From a virus (Duplodnaviria; Heunggongvirae; Uroviricota; Caudoviricetes): a stretch of DNA of 27,042 nucleotides. A program made the position numbers and the translations under genes. The notes beneath the pieces were generated by a model. The model worked only from the letters and a program-made list of their open reading frames with translations, did not search any database and was not told the DNA's origin. Every line of letters begins with the position of its first letter. The stretch's first letter is position 1. Below are positions 1,165 through 12,565 of this stretch, piece by piece. The stretch lies in IMG/VR virus record IMGVR_UViG_2751185961_000011; one strand, written 5' to 3'.

Positions 1165-1745
1165 TGAACCATCTCATGATTGACACCGAAACACTGGGTA
1201 ACGGACCGGGCGCAGCCATATTCGCGATTGGGGCGGTGTTTTTCGACCCGTTCACCGGAAAGCTGGGCAAGCAGTTTGAGAAATTCATCGACCCGGTGGA
1301 TTCAGAACGCAACGGCGGAACCGTCAATGCAGCCACCGCTGTATGGTGGGCCGGACAATCCGTGGAGGCCAGATCCTGCCTGCGCAACGCAGAGGGAACA
1401 GAGCTTGCGGCAGTAACCGAATTTCTGGCGTTCATTTCACGCAATATGCATGACGAAAGCCCGGGCAATTCACTGACCATATGGTGCAAAGGCGCATCCT
1501 TCGATTTCCCGATCCTGAAATCCGCCATAACACGCACAGCCGGAGAAAAAAGCATCCCCTGGTGCTACTGGAACGAGCGCTGTATGCGCCCGCTTATCGC
1601 CATGGCTGAATCAACTGGATGGAAAATGCCAGGCAGATCAGGAAAGGAGGCTATTGCTCACACTGCACTGGGCGATGCCGTTTACCAGGCAAAGGTCGTG
1701 TCAGAAATCTGGCAGCGCTTCACAACACCATTCCTGAACATATGA
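1164..1745 (+). CDS. DnaQ-like (DEDD family) 3'-5' exonuclease
   Basis: N-terminal MIDTETLG matches the Exo I D-x-E motif. C-terminal HTALGDAV matches the Exo III H-x4-D motif. Size about 193 aa, placed upstream of dam as in P2/186-like early operons. Confidence 0.7.
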   Translation: MNHLMIDTETLGNGPGAAIFAIGAVFFDPFTGKLGKQFEKFIDPVDSERNGGTVNAATAVWWAGQSVEARSCLRNAEGTELAAVTEFLAFISRNMHDESPGNSLTIWCKGASFDFPILKSAITRTAGEKSIPWCYWNERCMRPLIAMAESTGWKMPGRSGKEAIAHTALGDAVYQAKVVSEIWQRFTTPFLNI

Positions 1746-1977
1746 GGTGAAGCCATGGTCGCCATCCTGAATGTGTGTTGCTGCCCCCCCTGAACGTGGA
1801 AAGAAAAGCCCGCGCATCGCTGCGTTTATTCCGCGACGGCGTGCGGAATTTTTCACGCATAAAACCCCACGACTACCTGGTAATAAGAATCGGTTTTCGC
1901 TGGCGATTGCTGAGCAAAAACAACGGGGCGTCATGGGATTTATTAACGCACGAAACCTATAACAAAGAGGCCGCGTT

Positions 1978-2958
1978 ATGAGCAAAGAACTGTTATCCGG
2001 CACGCCGCTTAAATGGGTGGGCGGAAAAAGTCGCATCATGAACACACTGAAGGCGCATCTGCCAGAAGCAGACTGCCTGGTTGAGCCGTTTGTGGGTGGC
2101 GCATCGGTATTCATGAACACCAGTTACAAGCGTTACATCCTGGGTGATTCCAATGGTGCGCTGATTAATTTCTACCGGCAAGCCAGGGACAACACCGACA
2201 GCCTGATCGACGAGGCGAAAACCCTGTTCCTGAACCACAACAACAGGGGTGACTATCTCATCATTCGCGAAACCTTTAACGCAGAGAATCATGCCTTCCT
2301 GAACAGCAGAACGGGAATAAGCGACCGCCGTGAACTGCGACTGGCCGCCATGTTTTTGTACCTGAACCGACACAGCTTTAACGGTTTGTTCCGCGTGAAC
2401 GGAAAAGGCGATTTTAACGTGCCTTTCGGCTGCTACCGCAAGCCCTACTTCCCTGAGCGTGAAATCCGCGCATTTGCAGACAAGGCAAACAGCACCCGAA
2501 CGCTGCTTATCCACGCAGATTTTAAGGATACGCTGAACTCTGCCAGTCACCTGTTCGGCATGGGCAACACGCTTTGCGTGTACTGCGATCCCCCTTACCT
2601 GCAATTCAGTGGCCGGGACAATTTTACCGCCTACGGAAAACCATTCGATGAAGACGAGCACGTTCGTCTGAGGGCAGCGCTTGACCGCCTTTCACAGGAA
2701 ACGGGCAGCATGACCAGCATCACCATCTCCAATTCCGACACACCGGAAACACGACGCATTTATCGGGGTTACCGGATGAACTGCATACAGGCACCACGAA
2801 GCGTTGGCGCAAGAACCCGGGAATCAGCACCGGAGGTTATCGCCACCCTGAGACAGTGCGACGCCTGCGGTCACCATGGCGGTGGCTACTGCCCGGACTG
2901 CGGACCTGTAACGGGAGATGCAACTTACAGCGTGATGTTTACCCCTGCCAGTACGTGA
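1978..2958 (+). CDS. dam: DNA adenine methyltransferase, Dam/D12-class N6-adenine MTase, with a C-terminal Cys-rich tail
   Basis: N-terminal WVGGKS and EPFVGGASVF (SAM-binding motif I-like). DPPY catalytic motif at 2587-2598. C-terminal CDACGHHGGGYCPDCG resembles a zinc ribbon. Good RBS (AAAGAGG). Confidence 0.85.
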   Translation: MSKELLSGTPLKWVGGKSRIMNTLKAHLPEADCLVEPFVGGASVFMNTSYKRYILGDSNGALINFYRQARDNTDSLIDEAKTLFLNHNNRGDYLIIRETFNAENHAFLNSRTGISDRRELRLAAMFLYLNRHSFNGLFRVNGKGDFNVPFGCYRKPYFPEREIRAFADKANSTRTLLIHADFKDTLNSASHLFGMGNTLCVYCDPPYLQFSGRDNFTAYGKPFDEDEHVRLRAALDRLSQETGSMTSITISNSDTPETRRIYRGYRMNCIQAPRSVGARTRESAPEVIATLRQCDACGHHGGGYCPDCGPVTGDATYSVMFTPAST

Positions 2959-2993
2959 ATAAACAGATGAATCAGTAACACCGGAGTCAGGAA

Positions 2994-3230
2994 ATGAATA
3001 GCGAAAACAACAAAGAGCTTTTGCGGGAATTGCGTCTCATCGCCCGTGCACATGAGGAAGCAGCAAAAGTTATCGCAGCTGCTGGAAGACCAGAGCTCGT
3101 TATCGCTTCAGCAATCTCACTGAGGATCACCATGGAAGCAATCCGGGTGATTCAGGATCAGGAAAGTGAAATCGCCACCCTTAAAAAGCAGCTCAACGAG
3201 AAATCTGCCGGGCAAAGGAGTCAGCAATGA
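2994..3230 (+). CDS. Hypothetical protein (78 aa), predicted helical
   Basis: ORF with RBS-like GGAGTCAGGAA upstream. No motif recognised. Confidence 0.5.
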   Translation: MNSENNKELLRELRLIARAHEEAAKVIAAAGRPELVIASAISLRITMEAIRVIQDQESEIATLKKQLNEKSAGQRSQQ

Positions 3231-3445
3231 TCCAGGAATCAACCGTTATCCGGTTCACAGCCAACGGCCGTCAGTACGAGGTAGACGAAAGCCTGATTGA
3301 CCAGGGCATGACACGCCAGGACTCACGCAATTCTGAGATGCATCACATCCGCCTTATCAACGGTTCGCACTTCTGCGCCACGAACATGGAAGAAGTACGC
3401 GTGCTGACAGCAACACGCAATACGGGAGGTAAAGCATGGCAGTGA
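3227..3445 (+). CDS. Hypothetical protein (72 aa)
   Basis: ATGA start/stop overlap with the upstream ORF (translational coupling). No motif recognised. Confidence 0.5.
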   Translation: MIQESTVIRFTANGRQYEVDESLIDQGMTRQDSRNSEMHHIRLINGSHFCATNMEEVRVLTATRNTGGKAWQ

Positions 3446-3786
3446 TTTATATCGCCGGTCCAATGACCGGATACAAAGATCACAACAGAACGGCGTTTTT
3501 CACAGAGGCGATGAGGCTCGCGGCAGACGGGCACGTTGTGCTGAACCCTGCCACGTTGCCGGAAGGATTAAGCCAGCAGCAGTACATGAGCATTTGTATT
3601 CCGATGCTCATGTGTGCCGATGCCATTTACTTACTGGAAGGCTGGGTGGATTCAGCTGGCGCGCGGGCGGAGTACGTAATGGCACTCAAACTGAACATGC
3701 CAGTGTCATTCCCGGAAAACCGGGCAGCCGGCGAAACCGTCGCGCAGCTGCTTCACAAATCAAAAGCCACACAGGCGACTGAGTAA
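3436..3786 (+). CDS. DUF4406-like / nucleoside 2-deoxyribosyltransferase-like small protein
   Basis: N-terminal MAVIYIAGPMTG... pattern is typical of the deoxyribosyltransferase-like fold proteins common in P2-like early regions. 116 aa. Confidence 0.5.
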   Translation: MAVIYIAGPMTGYKDHNRTAFFTEAMRLAADGHVVLNPATLPEGLSQQQYMSICIPMLMCADAIYLLEGWVDSAGARAEYVMALKLNMPVSFPENRAAGETVAQLLHKSKATQATE

Positions 3787-4224
3787 CCGACCGGAGATCG
3801 AAACATGATTGCGCGAAGAGCTACCAACCGTCTCACAGGCTTTATTCCAGGCAAGGTTGATCATGCACTCCATCACGGGGCTGTCACTTTCCTCAACAAA
3901 GGAGAGGCGCGCAATCATGCATTCCGGGGTGAGCACGTGGCGCTGGCTAATCAGTCTTTGATAGCTAAGCGCCTGCCATTCAGCCTTTTCAGCTCTGATA
4001 GAAAGAGAGGAAGCCATGACCTGCCACACCAGAAAGAGCACCACACTGGCGAAAACAAACGTTGCGCTGTCGCAAAAAATGAATGCGGCAACAATCGCAA
4101 GGAAAGCGCTAATCCTCAGAACCAAGGAAGCGCGACGGTGGAGAAGGCTTGTCATGTGTTCAAGCCAGTAGCTGTACCACAGGTCAAAAAGAATTTCGTA
4201 ATCAGAAGGGAGCTTATCACTCAT
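3760..4224 (-). CDS. Putative small membrane protein encoded antisense to the early operon (start uncertain; alternative in-frame start at 4284)
   Basis: Minus-strand ORF with two clear hydrophobic segments (LVLRISAFLAIVAAFIFC and FVFASVVLFLVWQVMASSL). The competing + strand ORF 3805-4911 translates to low-complexity sequence. Confidence 0.4.
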   Translation of the reverse strand: MSDKLPSDYEILFDLWYSYWLEHMTSLLHRRASLVLRISAFLAIVAAFIFCDSATFVFASVVLFLVWQVMASSLSIRAEKAEWQALSYQRLISQRHVLTPECMIARLSFVEESDSPVMECMINLAWNKACETVGSSSRNHVSISGRLLSRLCGF

Positions 4225-4607
4225 CAGAAACACCCCGCGTATGCAGACAATCACCAGTTGCCAGGTGATATTAATTCGCAACATTCTAACCACATCAGCA
4301 CGCAACACAAAAACCGCTTGCCAGCGCTCGTCGTGTCGGGTTACATTTCCGCTGCACCTCATAAAACGGGTGCCGGGTTTCGCAGCCTGCTGACAACCAA
4401 AGCGCACAACCGCGCCAGCGGTTTTTTTGTGCGTACTGTATTGCCACGTCTTTTTCGCGTCAGAATTATGGCGGGGCGTACGGGGCCGACTTCGGTCGGG
4501 CCGGGTTCTTTGGTTGCCGGTACTGCGAACCTCGTACGCCTCGCCACCCACAGTTTCGCAGCTCTGGATGGTGAGTTTTCAAAACTTACAACCAAAGAGG
4601 CCACACC

Positions 4608-4829
4608 ATGGCAAACCGCAAGCAACAGCGCGCCCGCGCTGAGCGTCTTCACATCCGCAGCGAAATCAACCGCAGACTCCATCGGGCTGCATCTGTCGCC
4701 TTTATCATGCAGTCAAACGTATTACACCGACTTAACGACGGTATCGCTGCCGGGTATTACGCGGCAGTCTTCAGCTATCTCGCCGAAGATCTGGCAGAAC
4801 TACAAAGCCTCATCAACCAGCACCGATAA
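4608..4829 (+). CDS. Hypothetical basic protein (73 aa)
   Basis: Strong RBS (AAAGAGG) 7 nt upstream of the ATG. Arg-rich N-terminus. Confidence 0.45.
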   Translation: MANRKQQRARAERLHIRSEINRRLHRAASVAFIMQSNVLHRLNDGIAAGYYAAVFSYLAEDLAELQSLINQHR

Positions 4830-5089: not shown

Positions 5090-5313
5090 AAGGTGACGGT
5101 GATGGCTTTGGTTTATTTCACATCAACGGCACCGACAGTACCGCCATCAGCTGGTCATCGTCAGAGATGGCACTGGTTCTGGAAATGACAACCCACAGCG
5201 TGGCCGTGAAAGGCATATACACCGCAGAAGACTTTATCGGTGAATACCAGCGCCTTCTCGTGCTGTACCGCGCGGCGTTTCAGGAGGTCACTGGCGGGGA
5301 GTACGACGCATGA
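4948..5313 (+). CDS. Hypothetical protein immediately upstream of and coupled to gene A (start uncertain; GTG at 4948)
   Basis: ORF ends with an ATGA overlap onto the gpA start at 5310. No canonical ATG near its 5' end. Confidence 0.4.
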   Translation: MGGGSPAGFPPEQLARLLPPRCKQAARSITTYGDFSFTVDGRYRVDVKGDGDGFGLFHINGTDSTAISWSSSEMALVLEMTTHSVAVKGIYTAEDFIGEYQRLLVLYRAAFQEVTGGEYDA

Positions 5314-8093
5314 GTGACCGCAATGCACAGCTGGCGTACCCGTGGAACGCACCGCTACCGGTTATCGATCCTGAAACGTTCGGCAGAGCACAACCAACCG
5401 CATTACGCCAGGCCATTCAGAGCTACATCAACGAGGACATTCGCATTGATGCCAGACTGGATGAAGAAACCGTCTCCTTCCTGACAAACACAGACGAAGG
5501 CAAGCGAATTAATTCGCACCTTCACCACGACGAAGAGCGTCGGATCAGACTGGAAAAACTGGCGCGGCACAAACGCGAAAATCCGCCAACGCTGGTATCG
5601 GAAGCCATGGCAGAACTTCGCGCCCTGCCCTCGTTTCTTGGTAACGCGCTCATTCGTGATCTGGCGCGTTTAAACCGCAAACAACAAAGCGCCCGCAATG
5701 AAGGCGTGAAAAACAACAACACTCACGTGGCCGATAACTTCGTTCGCCGTGGACTGCGCACACGCCTGAAACGCATCGAACAGGTGAATGAATGCTTCGC
5801 CACGACAGCATTCAAAGCCACCGCAGCACGCCATCGCCTTGATGAATTACTCATGCTGCCACAACTCAACCGTAATCAAATTCAGCGCCTTGCCACACTA
5901 ACGGCGGCGGCATTTTCCACCGAACTGGAACGCATATGTGATGAAGTTACTGAGCGGACAGGAAAAGGCGACGATAACCTGTTTACCTGGTTGCTGACTT
6001 ACCAGCAGCTGGCGCGCATGGCAATAAAACTGGGCGTGAACCCACCATACTGGCCGTCACTCGAGATCAGACGTGACCGCCGCACGGCACCAGACCCTGA
6101 ACTGGTACCGGGCGCGGTAATGCGTATCACCTGCGCCACCTGGTGGAACAACCAGCTGCGCCACCTCGCTGATCTCTGGCGGGAGGAATTACTGCGTGCC
6201 GCCGGAAGAGTATCGCGCAAGGCATCCCCCTACATCAGCCATGAGTCACTCCAGGAATTCCGGGAGAAACGCCAGCGCACCCGTGATTTTCTCAAAAGCT
6301 GGGACATTGAAAACGAAGACGGTGAACGCCTGAGTCTGGAGGACGTGTACTGGTCAGGGCTGGGGAATCCGCGCAACCGCCGCAACGAGATGATGGCCTG
6401 CGTCAGAGGGATGGAACAGGTCGCCGAATCGCGTGGTGACTCCGCGTTCTTCGTGACAGTAACCTGCCCTTCCCGCTTTCACAGCGTGAACGAGGACGGC
6501 AGCCTGAACCCGAAATACAACGGTGCCACCGTGCGCGATGCCAGTGATTATCTGGTTTACGACGTCTTTGCAGCTGCAAGAAAAAAACTCAACAAAGAAG
6601 GCCTGAGCTGGTACGGGGTGCGCACCGTTGAGCCACACCATGACGGCACACCGCACTGGCACATGCTGGTATTCACCGCCCCGGACAATGAAGAACGCAT
6701 CATTGAAATCATGCGTGACGCAGCAATCAAATCAGATCGCGCAGAACTGGGGGATGATATTTCTCCGCGCTTCAAATGCGAAAAAATCGACCCGGCAAAA
6801 GGCACACCGGCAAGTTACATTGCAACCTATATCGGCAAGAACCTGGACGCCAGCGCCTTCCATAACAATGACCCGAAAACCGGCAAACCTTACGCTGATG
6901 AGGAATCCGGAAAAACCATGGCGGAAACTGTGGAAAATGCCATTGCCTGGGCGAGCCTCCACCGCATCCGCCAGTTCCAGTTTTTCGGTATCCCGCCCCG
7001 CCAGGTATGGCGTGAACTGCGCCGTCTTGCCGGACAGATGGAGCGAAACCCGGCATCGCCAAAGCGCATCGACAATGACGACATTGATGCCATTCTGGCC
7101 GCCGCAGATGTGGGGTGTTTTGCCACCTACATGACTCGCCAGGGTGGTGTGAATATTCCGCGCAACCTGTATCTGATCCGCACCGCATACGAAACCGCAG
7201 ATGAGGCCAATGATTACGGGGAATTTCCTCAACGTATCTGGGGAATATGCGCCCCGTCGCTCGGCGAGCGCTACACCATCTGTACCCATCCGGACGAATG
7301 GAAACTGGTCAGAAAAGAAGCGAAATCCGACAACAGCACGGACGAGGGTTTTGACGTTGGGGGCGGCTTCGCCGCACCTTGGACTCGTGGCAATAACTGT
7401 CCCCGTGTACAGGAAACAGGCAACAGCGGGACAGAACAGTCGGAAGAGCAACCAACACCGTGGACGCAGATCCCTGACGGCGTTGATGTGGATGAGTGGA
7501 TGCGCTCACTGAAACGGCACGAACGCCGGGCGCTGATGCGTTCGCTGCGTGACAAACAGGCAAAAAACAGCAGTGATGAAATGCAGAACTGGACACAGAG
7601 CCGCAAACAGCCACGGCCTTTGCCTGATAACCACGAGTTACTCGCTAAAGAATGGCGGGAGTCTGCCGAATCTCTCGGCCTGCATATCGGTGAACAGCAG
7701 ATGCAGTACCTGTTACGGGGCGGCACTCTGTACGTTGACGGCAGCATCATTGCACCGCAGGGATTTGAAATTGTACGCAAACCGGATACCCGCCCGGACA
7801 GCCGAATCACGCAGCTCTGGCAGCGCCTGAGCCGTAATCACGGCGTAAGCAGCACGGAGATCCGCCATAACCCGGTCGCCAGCTATCTGGAGCAGCTCGG
7901 GGCATCAGACCCCGAAGCCGCCGCACGCCTGGCATCCACAATTCAGCAGGACCAGAACACCATGAAAACTCCCGTTACCGTGCTTTCTGACATGCTGCGC
8001 GCCATCCGTGACACAGAGCACGCACAAAGAATCAATGAAACCACTGAACGCGCCCGCCGCAAGGCTACTTTGCTCCAAAAGAGAGGCAAATAG
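5310..8093 (+). CDS. A: Rolling-circle replication initiator endonuclease (P2 gpA-like)
   Basis: 927-aa ORF. HUH motif HWHMLVF (His codons 6654-6662). Paired catalytic tyrosines Y-IAT-Y in SYIATYIGKNLD (Tyr codons 6816-6818 and 6828-6830), matching the phiX174 A / P2 A RCR motif 3. Position between the early genes and the hotspot matches P2. Confidence 0.9.
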   Translation: MSDRNAQLAYPWNAPLPVIDPETFGRAQPTALRQAIQSYINEDIRIDARLDEETVSFLTNTDEGKRINSHLHHDEERRIRLEKLARHKRENPPTLVSEAMAELRALPSFLGNALIRDLARLNRKQQSARNEGVKNNNTHVADNFVRRGLRTRLKRIEQVNECFATTAFKATAARHRLDELLMLPQLNRNQIQRLATLTAAAFSTELERICDEVTERTGKGDDNLFTWLLTYQQLARMAIKLGVNPPYWPSLEIRRDRRTAPDPELVPGAVMRITCATWWNNQLRHLADLWREELLRAAGRVSRKASPYISHESLQEFREKRQRTRDFLKSWDIENEDGERLSLEDVYWSGLGNPRNRRNEMMACVRGMEQVAESRGDSAFFVTVTCPSRFHSVNEDGSLNPKYNGATVRDASDYLVYDVFAAARKKLNKEGLSWYGVRTVEPHHDGTPHWHMLVFTAPDNEERIIEIMRDAAIKSDRAELGDDISPRFKCEKIDPAKGTPASYIATYIGKNLDASAFHNNDPKTGKPYADEESGKTMAETVENAIAWASLHRIRQFQFFGIPPRQVWRELRRLAGQMERNPASPKRIDNDDIDAILAAADVGCFATYMTRQGGVNIPRNLYLIRTAYETADEANDYGEFPQRIWGICAPSLGERYTICTHPDEWKLVRKEAKSDNSTDEGFDVGGGFAAPWTRGNNCPRVQETGNSGTEQSEEQPTPWTQIPDGVDVDEWMRSLKRHERRALMRSLRDKQAKNSSDEMQNWTQSRKQPRPLPDNHELLAKEWRESAESLGLHIGEQQMQYLLRGGTLYVDGSIIAPQGFEIVRKPDTRPDSRITQLWQRLSRNHGVSSTEIRHNPVASYLEQLGASDPEAAARLASTIQQDQNTMKTPVTVLSDMLRAIRDTEHAQRINETTERARRKATLLQKRGK

Positions 8094-8190
8094 CACTTTA
8101 GTAATCAAAATGATGATGAGAAAAAACAATTACAAAGTTGGATATGCCTTTTCCATCATGAGGGATGAGATGTGAATCGCTAACCGAATA

Positions 8191-8220
8191 TTGTGTTGAA
8201 TAGAATGCAATTGATATAAT
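8191..8220 (+). promoter_or_regulatory. Candidate sigma70 promoter for the island operon
   Basis: TTGTGT (8191-8196), 18-nt spacer, TATAAT (8215-8220) in the AT-rich region upstream of the island methyltransferase. Found by eye only. Confidence 0.3.
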
Positions 8221-8353
8221 TCCCCTTAATTCATTGAAAACTGGATTTTTTGCATAACTATGCAAATATCTATGGACGGCGACGATGTTTTTTATCGGGA
8301 AAACTCAAGTGCCATGTTAAGATTATGTTTATTTTTTACTGAGAAAATCGTGG

Positions 8354-9199
8354 ATGACAAAGCCTTCTCATTTTAGAACCCCTCTTCGTTATCCGGGAGG
8401 TAAGGCAAAATTCTTGCCACATATTGAACAAATACTCCGCAACAATGATCTCATTGGTGGATGTTATGCTGAACCTTATGCAGGTGGAGCCGGTGTAGCA
8501 TTAGGTTTGCTCCTTAACGGTCTTGTTGAAAATATCTTCATAAATGATATTGATCCTGCCCTTTATTCTTTTTGGTTTGCAGTGGTTAATCATAACGATC
8601 TGTTATGTGAAATGATTGATGAAGTTCCTGTGACTATTGAAAATTGGCATACTCAAAAGGAGATACTCCTAAACAATGATAAATATAGTATGCTTGAAGT
8701 CGCATTATCTACTTTCTTTTTAAATAGAACAAACCGTTCAGGAATACTTAAGGCTGGCGTTATTGGAGGGAAAGAACAAAAAGGACCATGGAAGTTAGAT
8801 GCAAGATTCAACAAAAAAGAGTTAATTAAAAGGATTGAACTAATTGGTGCATATAAGGAGAAAATTTACGTATCGAATTTTGATGCTGCAGATTTTCTGC
8901 TACACCAAAAAGCATTACTACCCCAAAATAGTCTAATATATCTTGATCCACCTTATTATGTTAAAGGAGCAGAGTTATATAGAAATTTTTATAAACATGA
9001 TGATCATGTAAAAATCGCTAATACACTACGTGAAATTCAACTACCTTGGGTTGTGTCTTATGACAATGTGCCTGAAATAAAAAGCATATATCATGAATTC
9101 AACATGACTGATTATACGCTTAATTATACTGCACAAGATAAGAAAAAAGGTCTAGAAATTATCATTTATAATCATGGTATAAAAATCCCTGACATTTAA
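8354..9199 (+). CDS. Dam-family (D12-class) N6-adenine DNA methyltransferase, island copy
   Basis: N-terminal PLRYPGGKAKF and AEPYAGGAGVALG (SAM-binding motif I). DPPY catalytic motif at 8945-8956. 281 aa. AT-rich codon usage unlike the rest of the prophage. Confidence 0.85.
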   Translation: MTKPSHFRTPLRYPGGKAKFLPHIEQILRNNDLIGGCYAEPYAGGAGVALGLLLNGLVENIFINDIDPALYSFWFAVVNHNDLLCEMIDEVPVTIENWHTQKEILLNNDKYSMLEVALSTFFLNRTNRSGILKAGVIGGKEQKGPWKLDARFNKKELIKRIELIGAYKEKIYVSNFDAADFLLHQKALLPQNSLIYLDPPYYVKGAELYRNFYKHDDHVKIANTLREIQLPWVVSYDNVPEIKSIYHEFNMTDYTLNYTAQDKKKGLEIIIYNHGIKIPDI

Positions 9200-9216
9200 A
9201 TTTAAGGATGATATAG

Positions 9217-10914
9217 ATGATTAAAGAAATTAGTTTTAAAAAATTTAAGAAACTGATAGATATTGACTTCTCATTCAATGAAGACATCAATATAATATCA
9301 GGAACCAATGGGACATGTAAGACAACATTGCTTCATTTAATTAGCAATGGTTTCCAAATACCACCATCTAGATCACAAAATTATTCAAATAGTAATTGTG
9401 TTAGAGTTATAAAATCTATAAACAAAATAGCCAACCCAAAAATGGAAGCAATTGTTAGGGAATCAAAAAATTACACCGATCCGGCAGAGGGAACAAAAGG
9501 TGTGTTATTTTCTATTAACTATTTGGATCATAGCACACTAGACTTCAGAAAGCACAACTCAAAAAATCCAGACGAAGCGCAACGGTATGCTATCAAACCA
9601 GTATACCCACGCGGAAAAGAAAAACAATCACTTCCAGCTAAACCAGTTTTATATCTTGGATTATCGCGACTATTCCCGATTGGTGAAACTAAAGACGACG
9701 CCCTTACAAAAATTCCGTTAAACCTACCAGAAGAGTATGTTGGTTATATATCGAAAATATATAATGAACTTTTGGGCATTAATATTATAAATATAGAATC
9801 AAACAATATCGGAGATTTTAAAGCTGGCCCATTATTTGATACCGATAACCCAGCAATTGATTCTAATACCATATCATCCGGGGAAGACAATATATTCATT
9901 ATAATCAAGGCATTAGTTAGCCTTAGGTATTATTTTGAATCACTTATTCAATCCACTGATCAAAAAGAAAGCATTCTGTTAATAGATGAATTTGATGCCA
10001 CTTTACATCCTTCTTTACAGATAAGATTATTAGATAAAATTTATCAATACGCAAAAGATTATAAGATTCAAGTATTTTTCACAACGCACAGTCTGACATT
10101 GCTAGAATATGCTTTTCATAAAAAATACCATGTTGTCTATCTAATTAACAATATTACAAAGGCTCTGCTTTTGGATAATCCTGATATATTAAAAATAACA
10201 ATGTATCTGAAAACACAAACAAAGGATGAGATATACACAAGGAACAAGATACCAGTTTTCACGGAAGATGAAGAAGCTCGCTTTTTATTTAATGAAATAC
10301 TTGGTTATTGGATAAGCAAATATCCAAATTTTGCTATAGTTAGTAATTCATTTCACTTAATTGATTGTTTCATTGGTGCAGACAATTTAAAAACTATTTT
10401 TAATGATTCTCATCTTAAGGAAACCTCGTTAAAATCAATTTGTATTCTTGATGGAGATCACAGCCCTGAGGATCAGAGAGGAATTATATCACTGCCGGGT
10501 GAAAAAGCTCCAGAACAATTGATATTTGAGCATTGTGAGCACCTTTATAATACCGACGACTCTTCCTTCTGGGAAAATCAGGATATAATTAACAATGGTT
10601 TTTCGAAAGAGTTATACTTACTCAAGATACGTCCTCAATTACAATCAATTGAAACTGAAATTCAGAAAAGAAAAGACAACCATGAGTCTACATCCGGTTT
10701 AAGAAGAAAATTAAATAAGAAAATATTCAATCAGCATATTGAATTCTTTAGAATGATTACAAGAAACTGGTTAAACAAACCAGAAAATCAGAAATCTCTC
10801 CAGTATTTTTACAATGGATTACGATCCTTATTCTACCGGGTTACACCAACAAACGGCATTGACAGAAAAATTTGGGATTTTGACTATAACAAAATCATTA
10901 AAGAGGATAAATAA
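9217..10914 (+). CDS. OLD-family-like ABC-type ATPase with putative C-terminal TOPRIM nuclease domain
   Basis: Walker A GTNGTCKTT (9301-9327). Walker B LLIDEFD (D-E codons 9985-9990). H-loop-like VFFTTHS. C-terminal acidic motifs VFTEDEE (10255-10275) and ILDGDHS (DGD at 10450-10458) fit the TOPRIM glutamate plus DxD pattern. 565 aa, close to P2 Old in size and in the P2 old locus. AAGGA RBS 7 nt upstream and 17 nt after the methyltransferase stop. Confidence 0.75.
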   Translation: MIKEISFKKFKKLIDIDFSFNEDINIISGTNGTCKTTLLHLISNGFQIPPSRSQNYSNSNCVRVIKSINKIANPKMEAIVRESKNYTDPAEGTKGVLFSINYLDHSTLDFRKHNSKNPDEAQRYAIKPVYPRGKEKQSLPAKPVLYLGLSRLFPIGETKDDALTKIPLNLPEEYVGYISKIYNELLGINIINIESNNIGDFKAGPLFDTDNPAIDSNTISSGEDNIFIIIKALVSLRYYFESLIQSTDQKESILLIDEFDATLHPSLQIRLLDKIYQYAKDYKIQVFFTTHSLTLLEYAFHKKYHVVYLINNITKALLLDNPDILKITMYLKTQTKDEIYTRNKIPVFTEDEEARFLFNEILGYWISKYPNFAIVSNSFHLIDCFIGADNLKTIFNDSHLKETSLKSICILDGDHSPEDQRGIISLPGEKAPEQLIFEHCEHLYNTDDSSFWENQDIINNGFSKELYLLKIRPQLQSIETEIQKRKDNHESTSGLRRKLNKKIFNQHIEFFRMITRNWLNKPENQKSLQYFYNGLRSLFYRVTPTNGIDRKIWDFDYNKIIKEDK

Positions 10915-10990
10915 TGTATTCTAATAGAATATAAACATCAAAGCTATATTTTTTACACATATCAAGAGTAAAAAATAATTTAACTTTTAC

Positions 10991-11030
10991 ATAACGACCT
11001 CTTTTACAAATAAGTAGAAAAGGTCGTTAT
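10991..11030. repeat. Imperfect 17-nt inverted repeat (hairpin) downstream of the island operon
   Basis: ATAACGACCTCTTTTAC (10991-11007), loop AAATAA, GTAGAAAAGGTCGTTAT (11014-11030); 15 of 17 positions complementary. Possible terminator or operator. Confidence 0.4.
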
Positions 11031-11153
11031 AACTCTCATCTCCATAGCATGTAATTTTCTTTGCATATTTTCACATAACAGTCAGGGATGTATTTATAAG
11101 CAACGTCGTATACATAGGCTCAATTTTTCTATAAATAAGCACTCCGTTCGGTT

Positions 11154-11180: not shown

Positions 11181-11471
11181 TTTTTTTGAACGACTTTTTG
11201 CCCTTTCGGCCCGCATGGCGGCTGGATCCGTCAAGGATCGTGCGTGCACAAAAAAAACGCGTTTTCTGCGCGCAGGCGACGAGGGAAGGGCGCCCGAATT
11301 GAGGGGTGGAAGGCAGGTTGCTTTATTTGGGGTCGTATTGCGCGTGATACGCCAGCAGTGAAGCCTGTTTTAAAAAACCACATCAAAACATGGTCAGGGA
11401 AACAGGCCGTCAGAATGCGTCTGGCGAGGTCGGAGATCGGGAGGGAAACGGACGTCAGGAGCTGGAGAGTC

Positions 11472-11521: not shown

Positions 11522-12565
11522 TCAGCTGGCGCCATCCTGAAGCAGCGAATAGGGATTAAAGCGCATCACTTCAACCCCAAGCCATTCATTGACATGCTTC
11601 ATCGCTTCCATGACCGGTTGCAACTCGTTGATGAAAAATACCCTCGCCGCCTTCTCAACGTCACCGAACGCCGCGTTCCCGTCAGGCATTGCCCCCATCA
11701 GCTGAGGCGGTACACGGTGAGCCGCAAGGATATCGTCGCGGGCACTCCCCTTGATGTTAAGGAATTCGTCCTTCGCGGTGATTTGCTGGAACGGCAGTAT
11801 TTGCACACCATCCTTGCCGCCACCTGGCGCGTGCAGAAGGATATTGCGGAACGCCCCCTTGCCACGGGATTCCGTGAGTGTTTTCTTGATGGCTTCCACG
11901 CTTTCAGCGTTTGCCTGGGCGGCACCAACATAGACAATGCACCCGGCATGTGAACCGTTGTCATAGTAGAGCTTGCGGAACGTATCCGCTGAGTTCGACA
12001 GACTCACCGACAGCACCCCACCGATATACTCCGGCATCCCGTAGATTTCCTGGTTGATATCGGGGTTCAGAACGTGGCACACAGCCCCCTTACGGAAAGC
12101 AAATTCAGAACCATCATCATTGAGGTACCAGTACGTATCGAGATCACTGCCCCGCCGCGTGTATTTCGCCAGCGCAGGACGAAGCGCAATGGGTTCACCG
12201 AACTTGTTGCGGCGGACTTCAAGATAGGCATTACCGAACACGAACCAGTCCAGCGCAAACGCGGAAAACGCCTGGCGGGACAGTAGCAGATGAGGAACAA
12301 AGCAGCCGTTCAGGGCATTACGCTTAAAATACAGGGCCGACTGGTGCCATGATGCACGACGTGAGGCGCGAGCAATGGCATTCCAGTCCATGGGGGTGTC
12401 ATAGTAGCGGCCATTATCGGCGCACGACATGTTATCAAGAAGATCAAGACGGCTTGCTTCATAAGGACCGTCAAACGTGAAAGCACTGAGTGACGGCGCT
12501 GATTTCAGTGCATCAGCCAGTGAGCCCGTGCCGCGCTTTCCGGTGTATTTTTTACGTTTACTCAT
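11522..12565 (-). CDS. Q: Portal protein (P2 gpQ-like)
   Basis: 347 aa on the minus strand, immediately downstream of the large terminase gene; size and position match P2 Q (about 344 aa). Basic N-terminus MSKRKKYTGKRG. Confidence 0.88.
   Translation of the reverse strand: MSKRKKYTGKRGTGSLADALKSAPSLSAFTFDGPYEASRLDLLDNMSCADNGRYYDTPMDWNAIARASRRASWHQSALYFKRNALNGCFVPHLLLSRQAFSAFALDWFVFGNAYLEVRRNKFGEPIALRPALAKYTRRGSDLDTYWYLNDDGSEFAFRKGAVCHVLNPDINQEIYGMPEYIGGVLSVSLSNSADTFRKLYYDNGSHAGCIVYVGAAQANAESVEAIKKTLTESRGKGAFRNILLHAPGGGKDGVQILPFQQITAKDEFLNIKGSARDDILAAHRVPPQLMGAMPDGNAAFGDVEKAARVFFINELQPVMEAMKHVNEWLGVEVMRFNPYSLLQDGAS

Follow-up and report, generated by a model that had tools for sequence, protein, structure and literature searches.

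A methylase-paired ATPase-TOPRIM protein of the OLD superfamily in a P2-like prophage, a candidate restriction-like module

ATPase-TOPRIM proteins of the OLD type are among the commonest effectors of prokaryotic defence, and their means of discriminating self from non-self is poorly understood. The OLD classes now recognised are represented by the lone gene, Gabija, the retron and PARIS, and none of them is linked to a methylase. P2 Old and other Class 1 proteins, such as Thermus scotoductus OLD (PDB 6P74), carry an ABC ATPase followed by a TOPRIM domain in one chain. The same one-chain architecture, at a similar size to the protein studied here, is found in HEC-04/IbfA (Payne et al. 2024 preprint; IbfA of IncI plasmids), which was described as a single-gene system whose defence needs the Walker A lysine and an E/D/D triad (bioRxiv 10.1101/2024.01.29.577857). 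Defence by P2 Old, retron Eco8 and HEC-04/IbfA is of the abortive or exclusion type, and AriB of PARIS cleaves tRNA once an anti-restriction protein has been sensed. PD-lambda-5 (Vassallo et al. 2022), which consists of a ParB/HEPN protein and a D12 methylase, is a validated broad anti-phage system that was cloned in a host lacking mrr (PMC9519451); the need for such a host indicates that its methylase is active in vivo. It was termed 'RM+Abi', not plain restriction-modification, by Vassallo and co-authors (PMC9519451). The region between the P2 gpA and portal genes is a validated store of defence systems (PMC9122126; PMC9519451).

The locus analysed here lies in a P2-like prophage represented by IMG/VR record IMGVR_UViG_2751185961_000011 (Caudoviricetes), the whole stretch of 27,042 nucleotides being referred to as the window. 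The composition profile of the window revealed an island with a GC content of 30-32%, compared to about 55% in the flanking DNA. The features of the island and its borders are as follows.

5310-8093: gpA-like replication gene with a Phage_GPA domain, left flank of the island
8100..11100 (~8.1-11.1 kb), no strand: low-GC cargo island, from composition profile and ORFs
8354..9199, plus strand: D12-class (Dam-like) N6-adenine DNA methyltransferase of the PD-lambda-5_B family, 281 aa (Pfam, PADLOC)
9204-9208, plus strand: ribosome-binding site AAGGA, read from the sequence, 8 nt before the ATPase ATG and 5 nt after the methylase stop
9217..10914, plus strand: ABC ATPase-TOPRIM gene, 565 aa (ORF list)
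10991..11030, plus strand: strong hairpin, 77 nt past the ATPase stop (RNA fold -18.7 kcal/mol, z = -7.3)
11522-12565, minus strand: portal gene, forming with a cos-like site the right flank of the island

The same position is occupied in P2 by old and tin, and the island is thus located in the P2 old/tin defence hotspot. It was found in 15 of 5426 complete E. coli genomes, with 98-99.6% identity and always beside a 'replication endonuclease'. No helicase or reverse transcriptase genes are present in the ORF list of the window.

The 565-aa protein has 1349 full-length homologues distributed over many phyla. Its N-terminal part is an ABC ATPase with the following elements.

9217..10206, plus strand: ABC ATPase domain of OLD/PtuA/AriA type, ~aa 1-330 (Pfam, profile matches, hhalign)
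9301..9327, plus strand: Walker A GTNGTCKTT, aa 29-37, including K35; G29, N31, G32, C34 and K35 invariant
9874..9885, plus strand: ABC signature SSGE, aa 220-223, inside the invariant block DSNTISxGEDN
9976..9996, plus strand: Walker B and D-loop LLIDEFD, aa 254-260, including D257 and E258; invariant
10072..10092, plus strand: H-loop VFFTTHS, aa 286-292, including H291; invariant

Walker A, signature, Walker B, D-loop and the H-loop histidine are all present in the order of an ABC ATPase, and a conserved insert separates Walker A from the signature motif. Pfam families AAA_15 (46.7 bits, cut-off 32.1) and AAA_21 (42.2 bits, cut-off 27) were matched above their gathering thresholds, and the PDB profile matches of the ATPase part were PtuA, AriA, Thermus OLD and Rad50. 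With the full-length profile, matches to PDB sequences were confined to the ATPase motifs. In a Foldseek search with the full-length model the top ranks were taken by the retron Eco8 effector, GajA and Thermus OLD (500-650 columns each), and a probability of 1.00 was reached by these three as well as by PtuA, Rad50 and SMC heads. An alignment of 30 family members (45-77% identity) showed K35, S220, G222, E223, D257, E258, H291, E350, D351, E353, D412, G413 and D414 to be invariant; conservation across this alignment and a wider one of 62 sequences places the motifs far beyond chance.

A preliminary description, made from the sequence before these searches, had read the protein as a Walker A/B ATPase with a TOPRIM nuclease domain of the OLD or PARIS kind. 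The positions that it gave for GTNGTCKTT (29-37), LLIDEFD (254-260), VFFTTHS (286-292), VFTEDEE (347-353) and ILDGDHS (410-416) proved exact. The SSGE signature at 220-223 was absent from its list of motifs. A transporter ATPase, the contrary identity that it considered, was rejected, since NCBIfam transporter models scored about 20 bits where more than 200 is required, and a membrane partner is absent. NCBIfam otherwise gave only sub-threshold ATPase matches for this protein, and its PHROGs match, phrog_3940, is of 'unknown function'.

The catalytic assignment of the protein depends on the region that follows the ATPase domain.

10243..10509, plus strand: divergent TOPRIM domain as supported below, ~aa 343-431 (AlphaFold model)
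10264..10275, plus strand: glutamate cluster E350-D351-E352-E353, directly after strand 1; E350, D351 and E353 invariant
10450..10458, plus strand: DxD motif D412-G413-D414, directly after strand 3; invariant

A TOPRIM domain is defined as a four-stranded parallel sheet with flanking helices, in which a glutamate follows strand 1, a glycine strand 2 and a DxD motif strand 3 (PMC6755086). In the AlphaFold model of the 565-aa protein the strands are predicted at residues 345-349, 379-382, 408-411 and 423-425, with helices between them, so that E350, G387 after strand 2, and D412/D414 conform to this definition on the predicted fold. Across the 62 sequences, which include relatives at 25-30% identity, E350, D351, E353 and the D-G-D triplet are conserved in at least 95%, and G387 in at least 90%. 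By this reading E350 would be a metal ligand and E353 a helper acid. The two aspartates had been numbered D411 and D413 in the preliminary description, one position too low: position 411 is Leu and position 413 Gly.

Comparison with known proteins points in the same direction. The HEC-04 ATPase-TOPRIM model matched the C-terminal fragment alone with E = 4e-7, covering aa 343-445, and a BLASTP alignment with a HEC-04-type plasmid protein (E = 2e-13) spans both motifs, pairing FTEDEEAR with FVEDELAR and ILDGD with VLDGD. The glutamate pattern agrees with E398/E402 of P2 Old, the Burkholderia OLD counterparts being E400/E404 (PMC6755086); the spacing from E350 to the DxD motif is 62 residues, compared to 55 in P2 Old and Burkholderia OLD. 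Several other searches failed. No match to the Pfam TOPRIM families, to PF20469 (OLD-like_TOPRIM) or to DUF4435 was obtained with the whole protein or, at E <= 10, with its C-terminal 268 aa, and no Pfam TOPRIM match with the C-termini of five divergent relatives. Foldseek with the isolated C-terminal model found nothing significant in the PDB, and the C-terminal profile gave only chance globin matches among PDB sequences. Hhalign of the C-terminal regions against P2 Old was not significant (E = 0.03-0.38) and its register was inconsistent. With three approaches negative (Pfam, Foldseek of the isolated domain, and comparison of profiles with P2 Old), the evidence for TOPRIM is good, not overwhelming.

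These failures would be expected if the C-terminal region were not a catalytic TOPRIM, its acidic motifs serving in protein or nucleotide binding and the whole being a non-nucleolytic ABC ATPase, for example one that clamps DNA or regulates the methylase. Such a protein is considered very unlikely in view of the HEC-04 match of the fragment, the BLASTP alignment over both motifs, the order of E, G and DxD along the first three strands, which is precisely that of a canonical TOPRIM, and the invariance of the acidic residues over very large distances. The data therefore support residues 343-431 as a divergent TOPRIM domain, and the ATPase-TOPRIM reading of the preliminary description is borne out by the AAA_15/AAA_21 matches, the full-length Foldseek result, the HEC-04 fragment match and the strand positions. 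Of the two comparisons that it proposed, the alignment with P2 Old held for the ATPase but not for the C-terminal region, and the structure search placed ATPase-TOPRIM proteins at the top with the full-length model but not with the isolated domain.

Beyond the TOPRIM region the protein continues into one further domain.

10510..10911, plus strand: family-specific helical domain, aa 432-565 (conservation, high-confidence helices)

The last 150 residues had been described as having no recognisable motif, which was wrong in substance: the helical domain is predicted with pLDDT of about 90-96 in the AlphaFold model, and E433, F451, W452, G494, R497, K501, F504, F511, W518, F539 and W553 are invariant in the 30-sequence alignment. 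When the C-terminal module was searched as a single sequence against 1.84 billion representatives, only its own family was retrieved, with no bridge to OLD or AriB; in full-length proteins the TOPRIM and helical module was in every case preceded by an ATPase of about 320 aa (159 clusters). In Burkholderia OLD, E508 and K562 of the helical domain provide a second metal site and a catalytic lysine (PMC6755086). By analogy, the helical domain of the 565-aa protein is a candidate for DNA binding and for completion of the active site, with E433, R497 and K501 as candidate counterparts of E508/K562.

Although each of the described ATPase-TOPRIM systems shares features with the 565-aa protein, none coincides with it. 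HEC-04 was the best PADLOC match of the whole protein (E = 1e-16), but the two are only about 22% identical, the match to the model is limited to aa 249-445, with 58 bits (109 for a closer HEC-04-type relative), and the C-terminal helical domain is not common to both at the sequence level. P2 Old occupies the same P2 locus and has its E...E, G and DxD motifs in the same order, and hhalign of the full-length profiles gave 94.5% probability (E = 8e-8), the ATPase domain alone being aligned with high confidence. By BLASTP, however, only the Walker B region of P2 Old could be aligned. PF20469 is present in nearly all of 120 listed Old homologues and in none of 120 listed members of the 565-aa family, and the PADLOC Old model, which scores 712 bits with P2 Old, is not among the best models of the 565-aa protein. 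On these sequence comparisons the protein is placed outside the P2 Old family proper. The best full-length structural match was the retron Eco8 effector, a Class 3 OLD (9lpa_B, E = 1.4e-11, 544 columns), and the corresponding PADLOC model, ATPase-Toprim_I-B, spans aa 14-420 including both TOPRIM motifs (E = 1e-15). Identity with that effector is nevertheless at most 15%, and the locus has a methylase instead of a reverse transcriptase or an msr/msd RNA gene. PARIS is likewise found in P2/P4-related hotspots, and AriA-type ATPases are among the matches of the 565-aa protein. It differs in that DUF4435 is absent, the two parts are combined in one chain, and a methylase is the partner; there was no sign of an Ocr trigger or a tRNA target. 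The contexts of OLD Classes 1-3 of Schiltz and Dot are a lone gene, a UvrD-like helicase (Gabija) and a retron reverse transcriptase with ncRNA, and the methylase context fits none of them.

The methylase matches Pfam MethyltransfD12 with 74 bits and PADLOC PD-Lambda-5_B with E = 1e-121, residues 6-280 aligning with positions 3-277 of 291, and it shares 52% identity with its counterpart from a PD-lambda-5 locus that another E. coli carries in the same P2 hotspot. EPYAGGAG (AdoMet motif) and DPPY (catalytic motif) are conserved in 62 homologues; the most conserved stretch is LNRTNRSG..G.IGG, which suggests one shared methylase specificity. The methylase family, the two-gene layout and the location in prophage hotspots are thus common to PD-lambda-5 and the locus of the window, whereas the ParB/HEPN effector of PD-lambda-5 is unrelated to the ABC ATPase-TOPRIM effector; the PD-Lambda-5_A model, which reaches E = 5e-168 at PD-lambda-5 loci elsewhere, was absent among the best 25 PADLOC matches of the 565-aa protein. 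The methylase had gone unmentioned in the preliminary description.

The methylase stop and the ATPase start are separated by a 17-nt spacer that holds nothing but the ribosome-binding site AAGGA, indicating a single operon. The hairpin at 10991..11030, for which none of 200 shuffled sequences was as good, has no U-run and was not listed by a consensus terminator scan; it is probably the terminator of the two-gene operon.

Pairing of the two genes was examined in 67 loci with a full-length ATPase ORF, comprising the window, 65 species genomes and one further E. coli locus. A D12 methylase ORF of the same subfamily is present in 66 of them, and the 67th is a 2.6-kb contig ending inside a partial methylase gene. 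The pair is adjacent on the same strand in 57 loci and on opposite strands in four. Both gene orders occur, the usual one being nuclease before methylase and that of the window the reverse, and spacers within the operons are 12-90 nt long. The hosts belong to Enterobacterales, Clostridia, Bacilli, Actinomycetota, Spirochaetota, Fusobacteriota, Neisseria and Rhizobiales and include a methanogen, and the pair is also carried by temperate phages of Vibrio (P2-like) and Streptococcus. Both the pairing and the motifs are retained in relatives at 25-32% identity (L080-L084, L088). Pairwise identities of nuclease and methylase are correlated (r = 0.56, Mantel p <= 0.001), which could stem from joint horizontal transfer and not from functional interaction. 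Decay was seen in one locus with a frameshifted nuclease and an intact methylase, and in another where deletion has left only a remnant of the two genes; an intact nuclease without a methylase was not seen in any of the loci surveyed. In the one neighbourhood of a HEC-04-type plasmid relative that was examined, no methylase is adjacent. The ATPase-TOPRIM/methylase pairing is obligate and co-evolving.

This obligate partner changes the most likely identity of the system. Orphan Dam-like methylases are frequent on phages, and Class 1 OLD proteins, like HEC-04, function as single genes; the locus could on these grounds be a chance assembly of an orphan phage methylase, protecting the phage from host restriction or tuning expression, and a stand-alone exclusion protein of the Class 1 OLD or HEC-04 kind. 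Two such independent cargo genes are, however, rejected: the genes occur together in all 67 loci, whatever the phylum, gene order or setting (prophage or not), their divergence is correlated, and in the window the spacer is taken up by a ribosome-binding site. This explanation is strongly disfavoured and has almost no probability left.

On balance, the 565-aa protein is probably an OLD-superfamily nuclease with ABC ATPase and TOPRIM domains in a single chain, representing a clade of its own and serving as the effector of a two-gene methylase operon that constitutes a restriction-like module. The gene content by which restriction-modification loci are recognised, a methyltransferase with intact motifs adjacent to a nuclease gene, is found here, and as in Type II and Type III systems a methylase and a putative nuclease share one operon, are inherited together, and the nuclease decays first. 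The motor of Type I and Type III enzymes is an SF2 helicase, while that of the 565-aa protein is an ABC ATPase. To our knowledge, the folds of characterised restriction enzymes are PD-(D/E)xK, HNH, GIY-YIG, PLD and half-pipe, and TOPRIM is not among them; no described system of a methylase with an ATPase-TOPRIM protein was found in the literature. The two genes most likely form a small anti-phage system resembling restriction-modification, in a variant not yet described.

In such a system the methylase would mark the DNA of the lysogen and its prophage at target sites, and the ATPase-TOPRIM protein, probably in the form of an ATP-engaged dimer or complexed with the methylase, would load on DNA. 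DNA without the mark would be nicked or cut by two-metal TOPRIM catalysis, and incoming unmethylated phage DNA would be restricted as a result. Nuclease activity, DNA as substrate, protection by methylation and a defence phenotype are all supposed in this scheme. Against it stands the behaviour of the best-understood relatives, which do not read methylation, as well as the 'RM+Abi' character of PD-lambda-5. Further, the protein has no obvious variable target-recognition domain and its family is unusually uniform, which is atypical for Type II.

Uniformity is what would be expected of a sensor for a conserved trigger. The main rival is an abortive-infection guard of the PARIS, PrrC or HEC-04 type, a reading to which the 'RM+Abi' label of the compact PD-lambda-5 system also lends support. 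Here the ATPase would respond to something made by the phage, for instance a replication intermediate, a DNA mimic, or a protein that counters restriction or the methylase, and would free the TOPRIM domain to act on host tRNA or DNA, so that growth of the infected cell stops. The methylase would then be a guarded component, a regulator or an antidote, and not a self-marker read by the nuclease. OLD-type ABC-TOPRIM modules are known as 'backup suicidal effectors' on methylase-based BREX systems (PMC12839542), and in three loci the ATPase-TOPRIM gene stands together with PD-lambda-5_A and the methylase, that is, beside a complete PD-lambda-5 pair, in the manner of an add-on. In 61 of the 67 loci, however, the methylase is the only neighbouring partner, and a methylase alone is no first line of defence to be backed up; the pairing is also stricter than usual for accessory effectors. 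Loss of the nuclease with retention of the methylase, never the reverse, fits dependence of the cell on the methylase, and fits a toxin-antidote relation as well. Taken together, a guard function appears rather unlikely, though it deserves the most serious consideration among the rivals.

The lack of a variable recognition domain in a uniform nuclease family could also be accommodated within the restriction-like reading, as a sub-variant similar to a Type III holoenzyme, in which the methylase would give target recognition to a nuclease without specificity of its own, and ATP binding or hydrolysis would clamp the nuclease or let it slide between unmethylated sites before TOPRIM cleavage. The co-variation of the two proteins and the tight operon are consistent with this, as is the use of one methylase family with alternative effectors (ParB/HEPN, ATPase-TOPRIM or both), in the manner of a shared recognition hub. 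D12 methylases are normally monomeric and act without partners, and the genes of the pair lie on opposite strands in four loci, both of which speak against a holoenzyme; it is judged unlikely, and somewhat more so than a guard.

A broader proposal, offered tentatively as a possibility that falls short of being probable, is that the locus represents a new type of restriction-modification, with a TOPRIM endonuclease powered by an ABC ATPase, built around a 'hub' adenine methylase that has interchangeable effectors and may serve as the DNA-recognition subunit. The effectors would be ParB/HEPN in PD-lambda-5, ABC-TOPRIM in the window, both in some Firmicutes, and HerA-containing versions in Rhizobiales.

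The clade is compact: clustering at 50% identity yields about 160 groups, spread over many phyla and temperate phages, always with one methylase family. PADLOC version 2.0.0 has no dedicated model for the nuclease, and the locus would consequently be left as an orphan methylase ('B' component) and an 'AAA family ATPase'. With the methylase taken into account, PD-lambda-5 is recast as one member of a set of modular systems that share its methylase. If the nuclease is sensitive to methylation, TOPRIM would be a new catalytic fold for restriction enzymes. For at least the branch of the 565-aa protein, the methylase link would give a simple answer to the question of how OLD-type effectors discriminate self from non-self, namely by an epigenetic mark.

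The window is a P2-like prophage in which a gpA-type replication gene is followed by an island of 3 kb with a GC content of 30-32%, against a surrounding background of about 55% in the composition profile. The island contains two co-directional genes, coding for a methylase and for the 565-aa protein, with a gap of 17 nt between them that holds an AAGGA ribosome-binding site. Beyond the island comes a cos-like sequence, and after it, on the minus strand, the portal and terminase genes.

5310-8093: gpA-type replication gene with a Phage_GPA domain, followed by the island
8354-9199, plus strand: D12 adenine methylase, 281 aa
9217-10914, plus strand: 565-aa protein, the second island gene
10991-11030: strong hairpin, 77 nt past the ATPase stop codon (-18.7 kcal/mol, z = -7.3)

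The sequence GGCGACGAGGGAAGGGCGCCC at 11276-11300 resembles the P2 cohesive end GGCGAGGCGGGGAAAGCAC, which puts the island in the gpA-cos interval, the position taken by old and tin in P2. Two independent studies identified this position as a hotspot for anti-phage systems (PMC9122126; PMC9519451). The hairpin lacks a U-run and was not listed by the consensus terminator scan. The gpA-like protein comprises 927 aa versus 761 aa in P2; its Phage_GPA match is confined to residues 190-514, and for its long C-terminal extension no family was matched. The island is present in 15 of 5426 complete E. coli genomes at 98-99.6% identity, annotated merely as 'DNA adenine methylase' and 'AAA family ATPase'.

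In the 565-aa protein, the Pfam families AAA_15 and AAA_21 scored above threshold, and in PDB sequence searches its Walker and signature regions matched PtuA, AriA, Thermus OLD and Rad50. A structure search with the full-length AlphaFold model (pLDDT 80) ranked ATPase-TOPRIM proteins first, in agreement with the OLD-type architecture proposed in the preliminary description: the top match was the retron Eco8 effector (E = 1.4e-11, 544 columns), followed by GajA and then Thermus OLD (E = 1.2e-9, 553 columns), while the ATPase-only PtuA, Rad50 and SMC ranked lower. Profile-profile comparison with P2 Old gave a probability of 94.5%, but with high confidence in the ATPase part only, the C-terminal comparisons being not significant. 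A transporter ATPase was rejected, since transporter models scored far under their cut-offs.

The five motifs read earlier from the translation all lie at the residues assigned to them, and an ABC signature motif absent from that list, SSGE, was found at residues 220-223. The aspartates numbered D411 and D413 are actually D412 and D414, and the mutants suggested on that basis, D411A/D413A, were therefore misnumbered. The protein has 1349 detectable homologues, mostly full length, with 45-50% identity even in Clostridia. The catalytic residues (K35, S220/G222/E223, D257/E258, H291, E350/D351/E353 and D412/G413/D414) are all invariant in a 30-sequence alignment and at least 95% conserved in a 62-sequence set that takes in relatives at 25-30% identity. 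Between Walker A and the signature motif lies an insert that holds some of the family's most conserved blocks (NPKxE, FRxHNS, RYxxKPxY, YLGLSRLxPxGE), yet three of its segments are modelled at pLDDT below 50 (aa 74-91, 151-166 and 196-203; within 9217-10206) and could be interaction or DNA-contact loops ordering only in a complex.

A TOPRIM catalytic core, as first suggested from its acidic residues, is very likely present. The PADLOC HEC-04 model matched the C-terminal 268 aa alone (E = 4e-7, spanning aa 343-445), and the PADLOC retron I-B ATPase-Toprim model covers aa 14-420. In a BLASTP alignment with a plasmid protein of the HEC-04 type, 521 aa long (E = 2e-13), IPVFTEDEEAR pairs with VSVFVEDELAR and ICILDGD with MCVLDGD. 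HEC-04 defence needs an E319/D375/D377 triad and the Walker A lysine, and its domain superposes on Burkholderia OLD (bioRxiv 10.1101/2024.01.29.577857). A separate model of aa 325-565 (pLDDT 89, pTM 0.86) displays the canonical strand-helix alternation, with E350 right after strand 1, G387 after strand 2 and D412-G-D414 after strand 3, in the E / G / DxD placement that defines TOPRIM (PMC6755086). P2 Old has the same motif order (E398, E402, VDGKG, D453-C-D455), with a spacing of 55 residues versus 62 in the 565-aa protein. Pfam TOPRIM, PF20469 and DUF4435 matched neither this protein nor five divergent relatives, PF20469 being present in nearly all Old homologues among the matches listed, and Foldseek with the isolated C-terminal domain returned nothing significant. 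It is concluded that the family forms a separate divergent branch outside the Old family proper.

The last 130-150 residues, previously regarded as a motif-less tail rich in Lys, Glu and Asn, hold invariant W452, R497, K501, W518 and W553 and, in the model, fold into a helical domain that packs after the TOPRIM core (pLDDT >90). When the C-terminal module was searched against 1.84 billion cluster representatives, just 159 clusters matched, and an ATPase of about 320 aa precedes the module in every full-length match.

The assignment to 'OLD-family and PARIS-type' proteins stands as regards architecture, but the protein does not qualify as a member of either group. It lacks PF20469, a match to the Old model and the gene context of the Old family proper, and it lacks the DUF4435 of PARIS. 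The nearest known system is HEC-04/IbfA, from which the family differs in low identity, its own C-terminal domain and an obligate methylase. The protein, a putative nuclease, is predicted to work like those of the OLD family.

The upstream methylase, overlooked in the preliminary description, matched PADLOC PD-Lambda-5_B (E = 1e-121). PD-lambda-5 comes from a P2-like prophage and has been validated as a system of broad range. Its other component is a ParB/HEPN protein, and its cloning required a host without mrr (PMC9519451), showing its methylase to modify DNA in vivo. A PD-lambda-5 locus occupies the same gpA-portal hotspot in E. coli EC6622 (L087, 2106-4565), with a 501-aa PD-Lambda-5_A (E = 5e-168) and a 294-aa methylase 52% identical to that of the window. 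This pair spans 2460 bp, equal to the length reported for the ECOR7 system. The two loci therefore have a methylase family in common, whereas the window lacks the A component and carries a different effector. In strain GN4143 (L088, 1848-4561), a distant second E. coli version is flanked by two integrase genes; its methylase has 299 aa, and its ATPase-TOPRIM protein of 577 aa retains both motifs and shows 25% identity along the whole length. Among the 119 E. coli genomes whose methylase matches were weak, many may have either PD-lambda-5 or this version.

The strictness of the pairing was assessed in 80 loci, one genome per species, together with the window and one further E. coli locus. Of the 67 loci with a full-length ATPase-TOPRIM ORF, 66 also contain an ORF for a methylase of the same subfamily; in the other, a short contig, the sequence ends within a partial methylase gene. 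The genes are adjacent on the same strand in 57 cases and on opposite strands in four, with intervening genes in five, and both gene orders were seen. Hosts include Enterobacterales, Clostridia, Bacilli, Actinomycetota, Spirochaetota, Fusobacteriota, Neisseria, Rhizobiales, Planctomycetota and one methanogen; the pair is also present in a Vibrio phage of P2 type and in a prophage of Streptococcus. Partner and motifs are retained in relatives at 25-32% identity. The two proteins diverge in step, their pairwise identities being correlated (r = 0.56, Mantel p ≤ 0.001). No methylase adjoins the one HEC-04-type plasmid gene examined for its neighbours. Decay is one-sided, with no locus having an intact nuclease without methylase. 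In Streptococcus ratti (L053, 5001-7496) the nuclease is frameshifted near aa 470-495 and the methylase intact, and L079 (5001-5872) is a deletion remnant of both genes, with ATPase aa 1-234 fused to methylase aa 207-274.

Several loci contain extra genes:

L037 5001-9527, L061 1895-6065 and L077 5001-9165 (Firmicutes/Tenericutes): ATPase-TOPRIM, PD-Lambda-5_A ParB/HEPN homologue, methylase
L040 222-6737 and L041 174-6695 (Rhizobium and Pseudorhizobium): operon of D12 methylase, HerA-like ATPase (DUF87), 532-aa protein without family match, ATPase-TOPRIM

The position of the PD-Lambda-5_A homologues (E = 2e-269, 7e-32 and 7e-31) between nuclease and methylase indicates that both effector types share one methylase. 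Fontibacillus has, directly upstream of its three-gene module (L037, at 1493-4636), a methyl-directed restriction enzyme of Type IV (PADLOC mREase_IV, E = 2e-214); a methylation-dependent enzyme adjoining a methylase-based system raises a question of compatibility.

Read most economically, the pair is a two-gene module resembling restriction-modification, in which the methylase would mark resident DNA and the ABC ATPase-TOPRIM protein would attack DNA without the mark, its ABC heads engaging in an ATP-dependent manner and its TOPRIM core working by two-metal catalysis. Metal site A would comprise E350 and D412/D414; the site would be completed by E353 and possibly by E433 and K501 of the helical domain, on the model of E404, E508 and K562 in Burkholderia OLD (PMC6755086). 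The methylase LNRTNRSG region is strongly conserved and the nuclease is uniform, without a variable recognition region, which points either to one methylation motif across the family or to a complex of the Type III kind in which the methylase supplies recognition. The principal alternative is an abortive-infection guard, which is how the nearest relatives (PARIS, HEC-04/IbfA, retron Eco8 and P2 Old) behave; OLD-type modules are described as backup effectors of methylase-based BREX (PMC12839542), and PD-lambda-5 is labelled 'RM+Abi' (PMC9519451). However, the methylase is the sole neighbouring partner in 61 of the 67 loci, leaving no first line for a guard to back up.

The nuclease has no model of its own in PADLOC 2.0.0, its PHROGs entry is of unknown function, a methylase-linked class is absent from the OLD class schemes consulted, and literature searches gave no description of a methylase plus ATPase-TOPRIM system. 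The domain call alone is unsurprising, since this locus gave OLD its name; the value of the finding lies in the strict coupling to a methylase and in the methylase-sharing modularity with PD-lambda-5.
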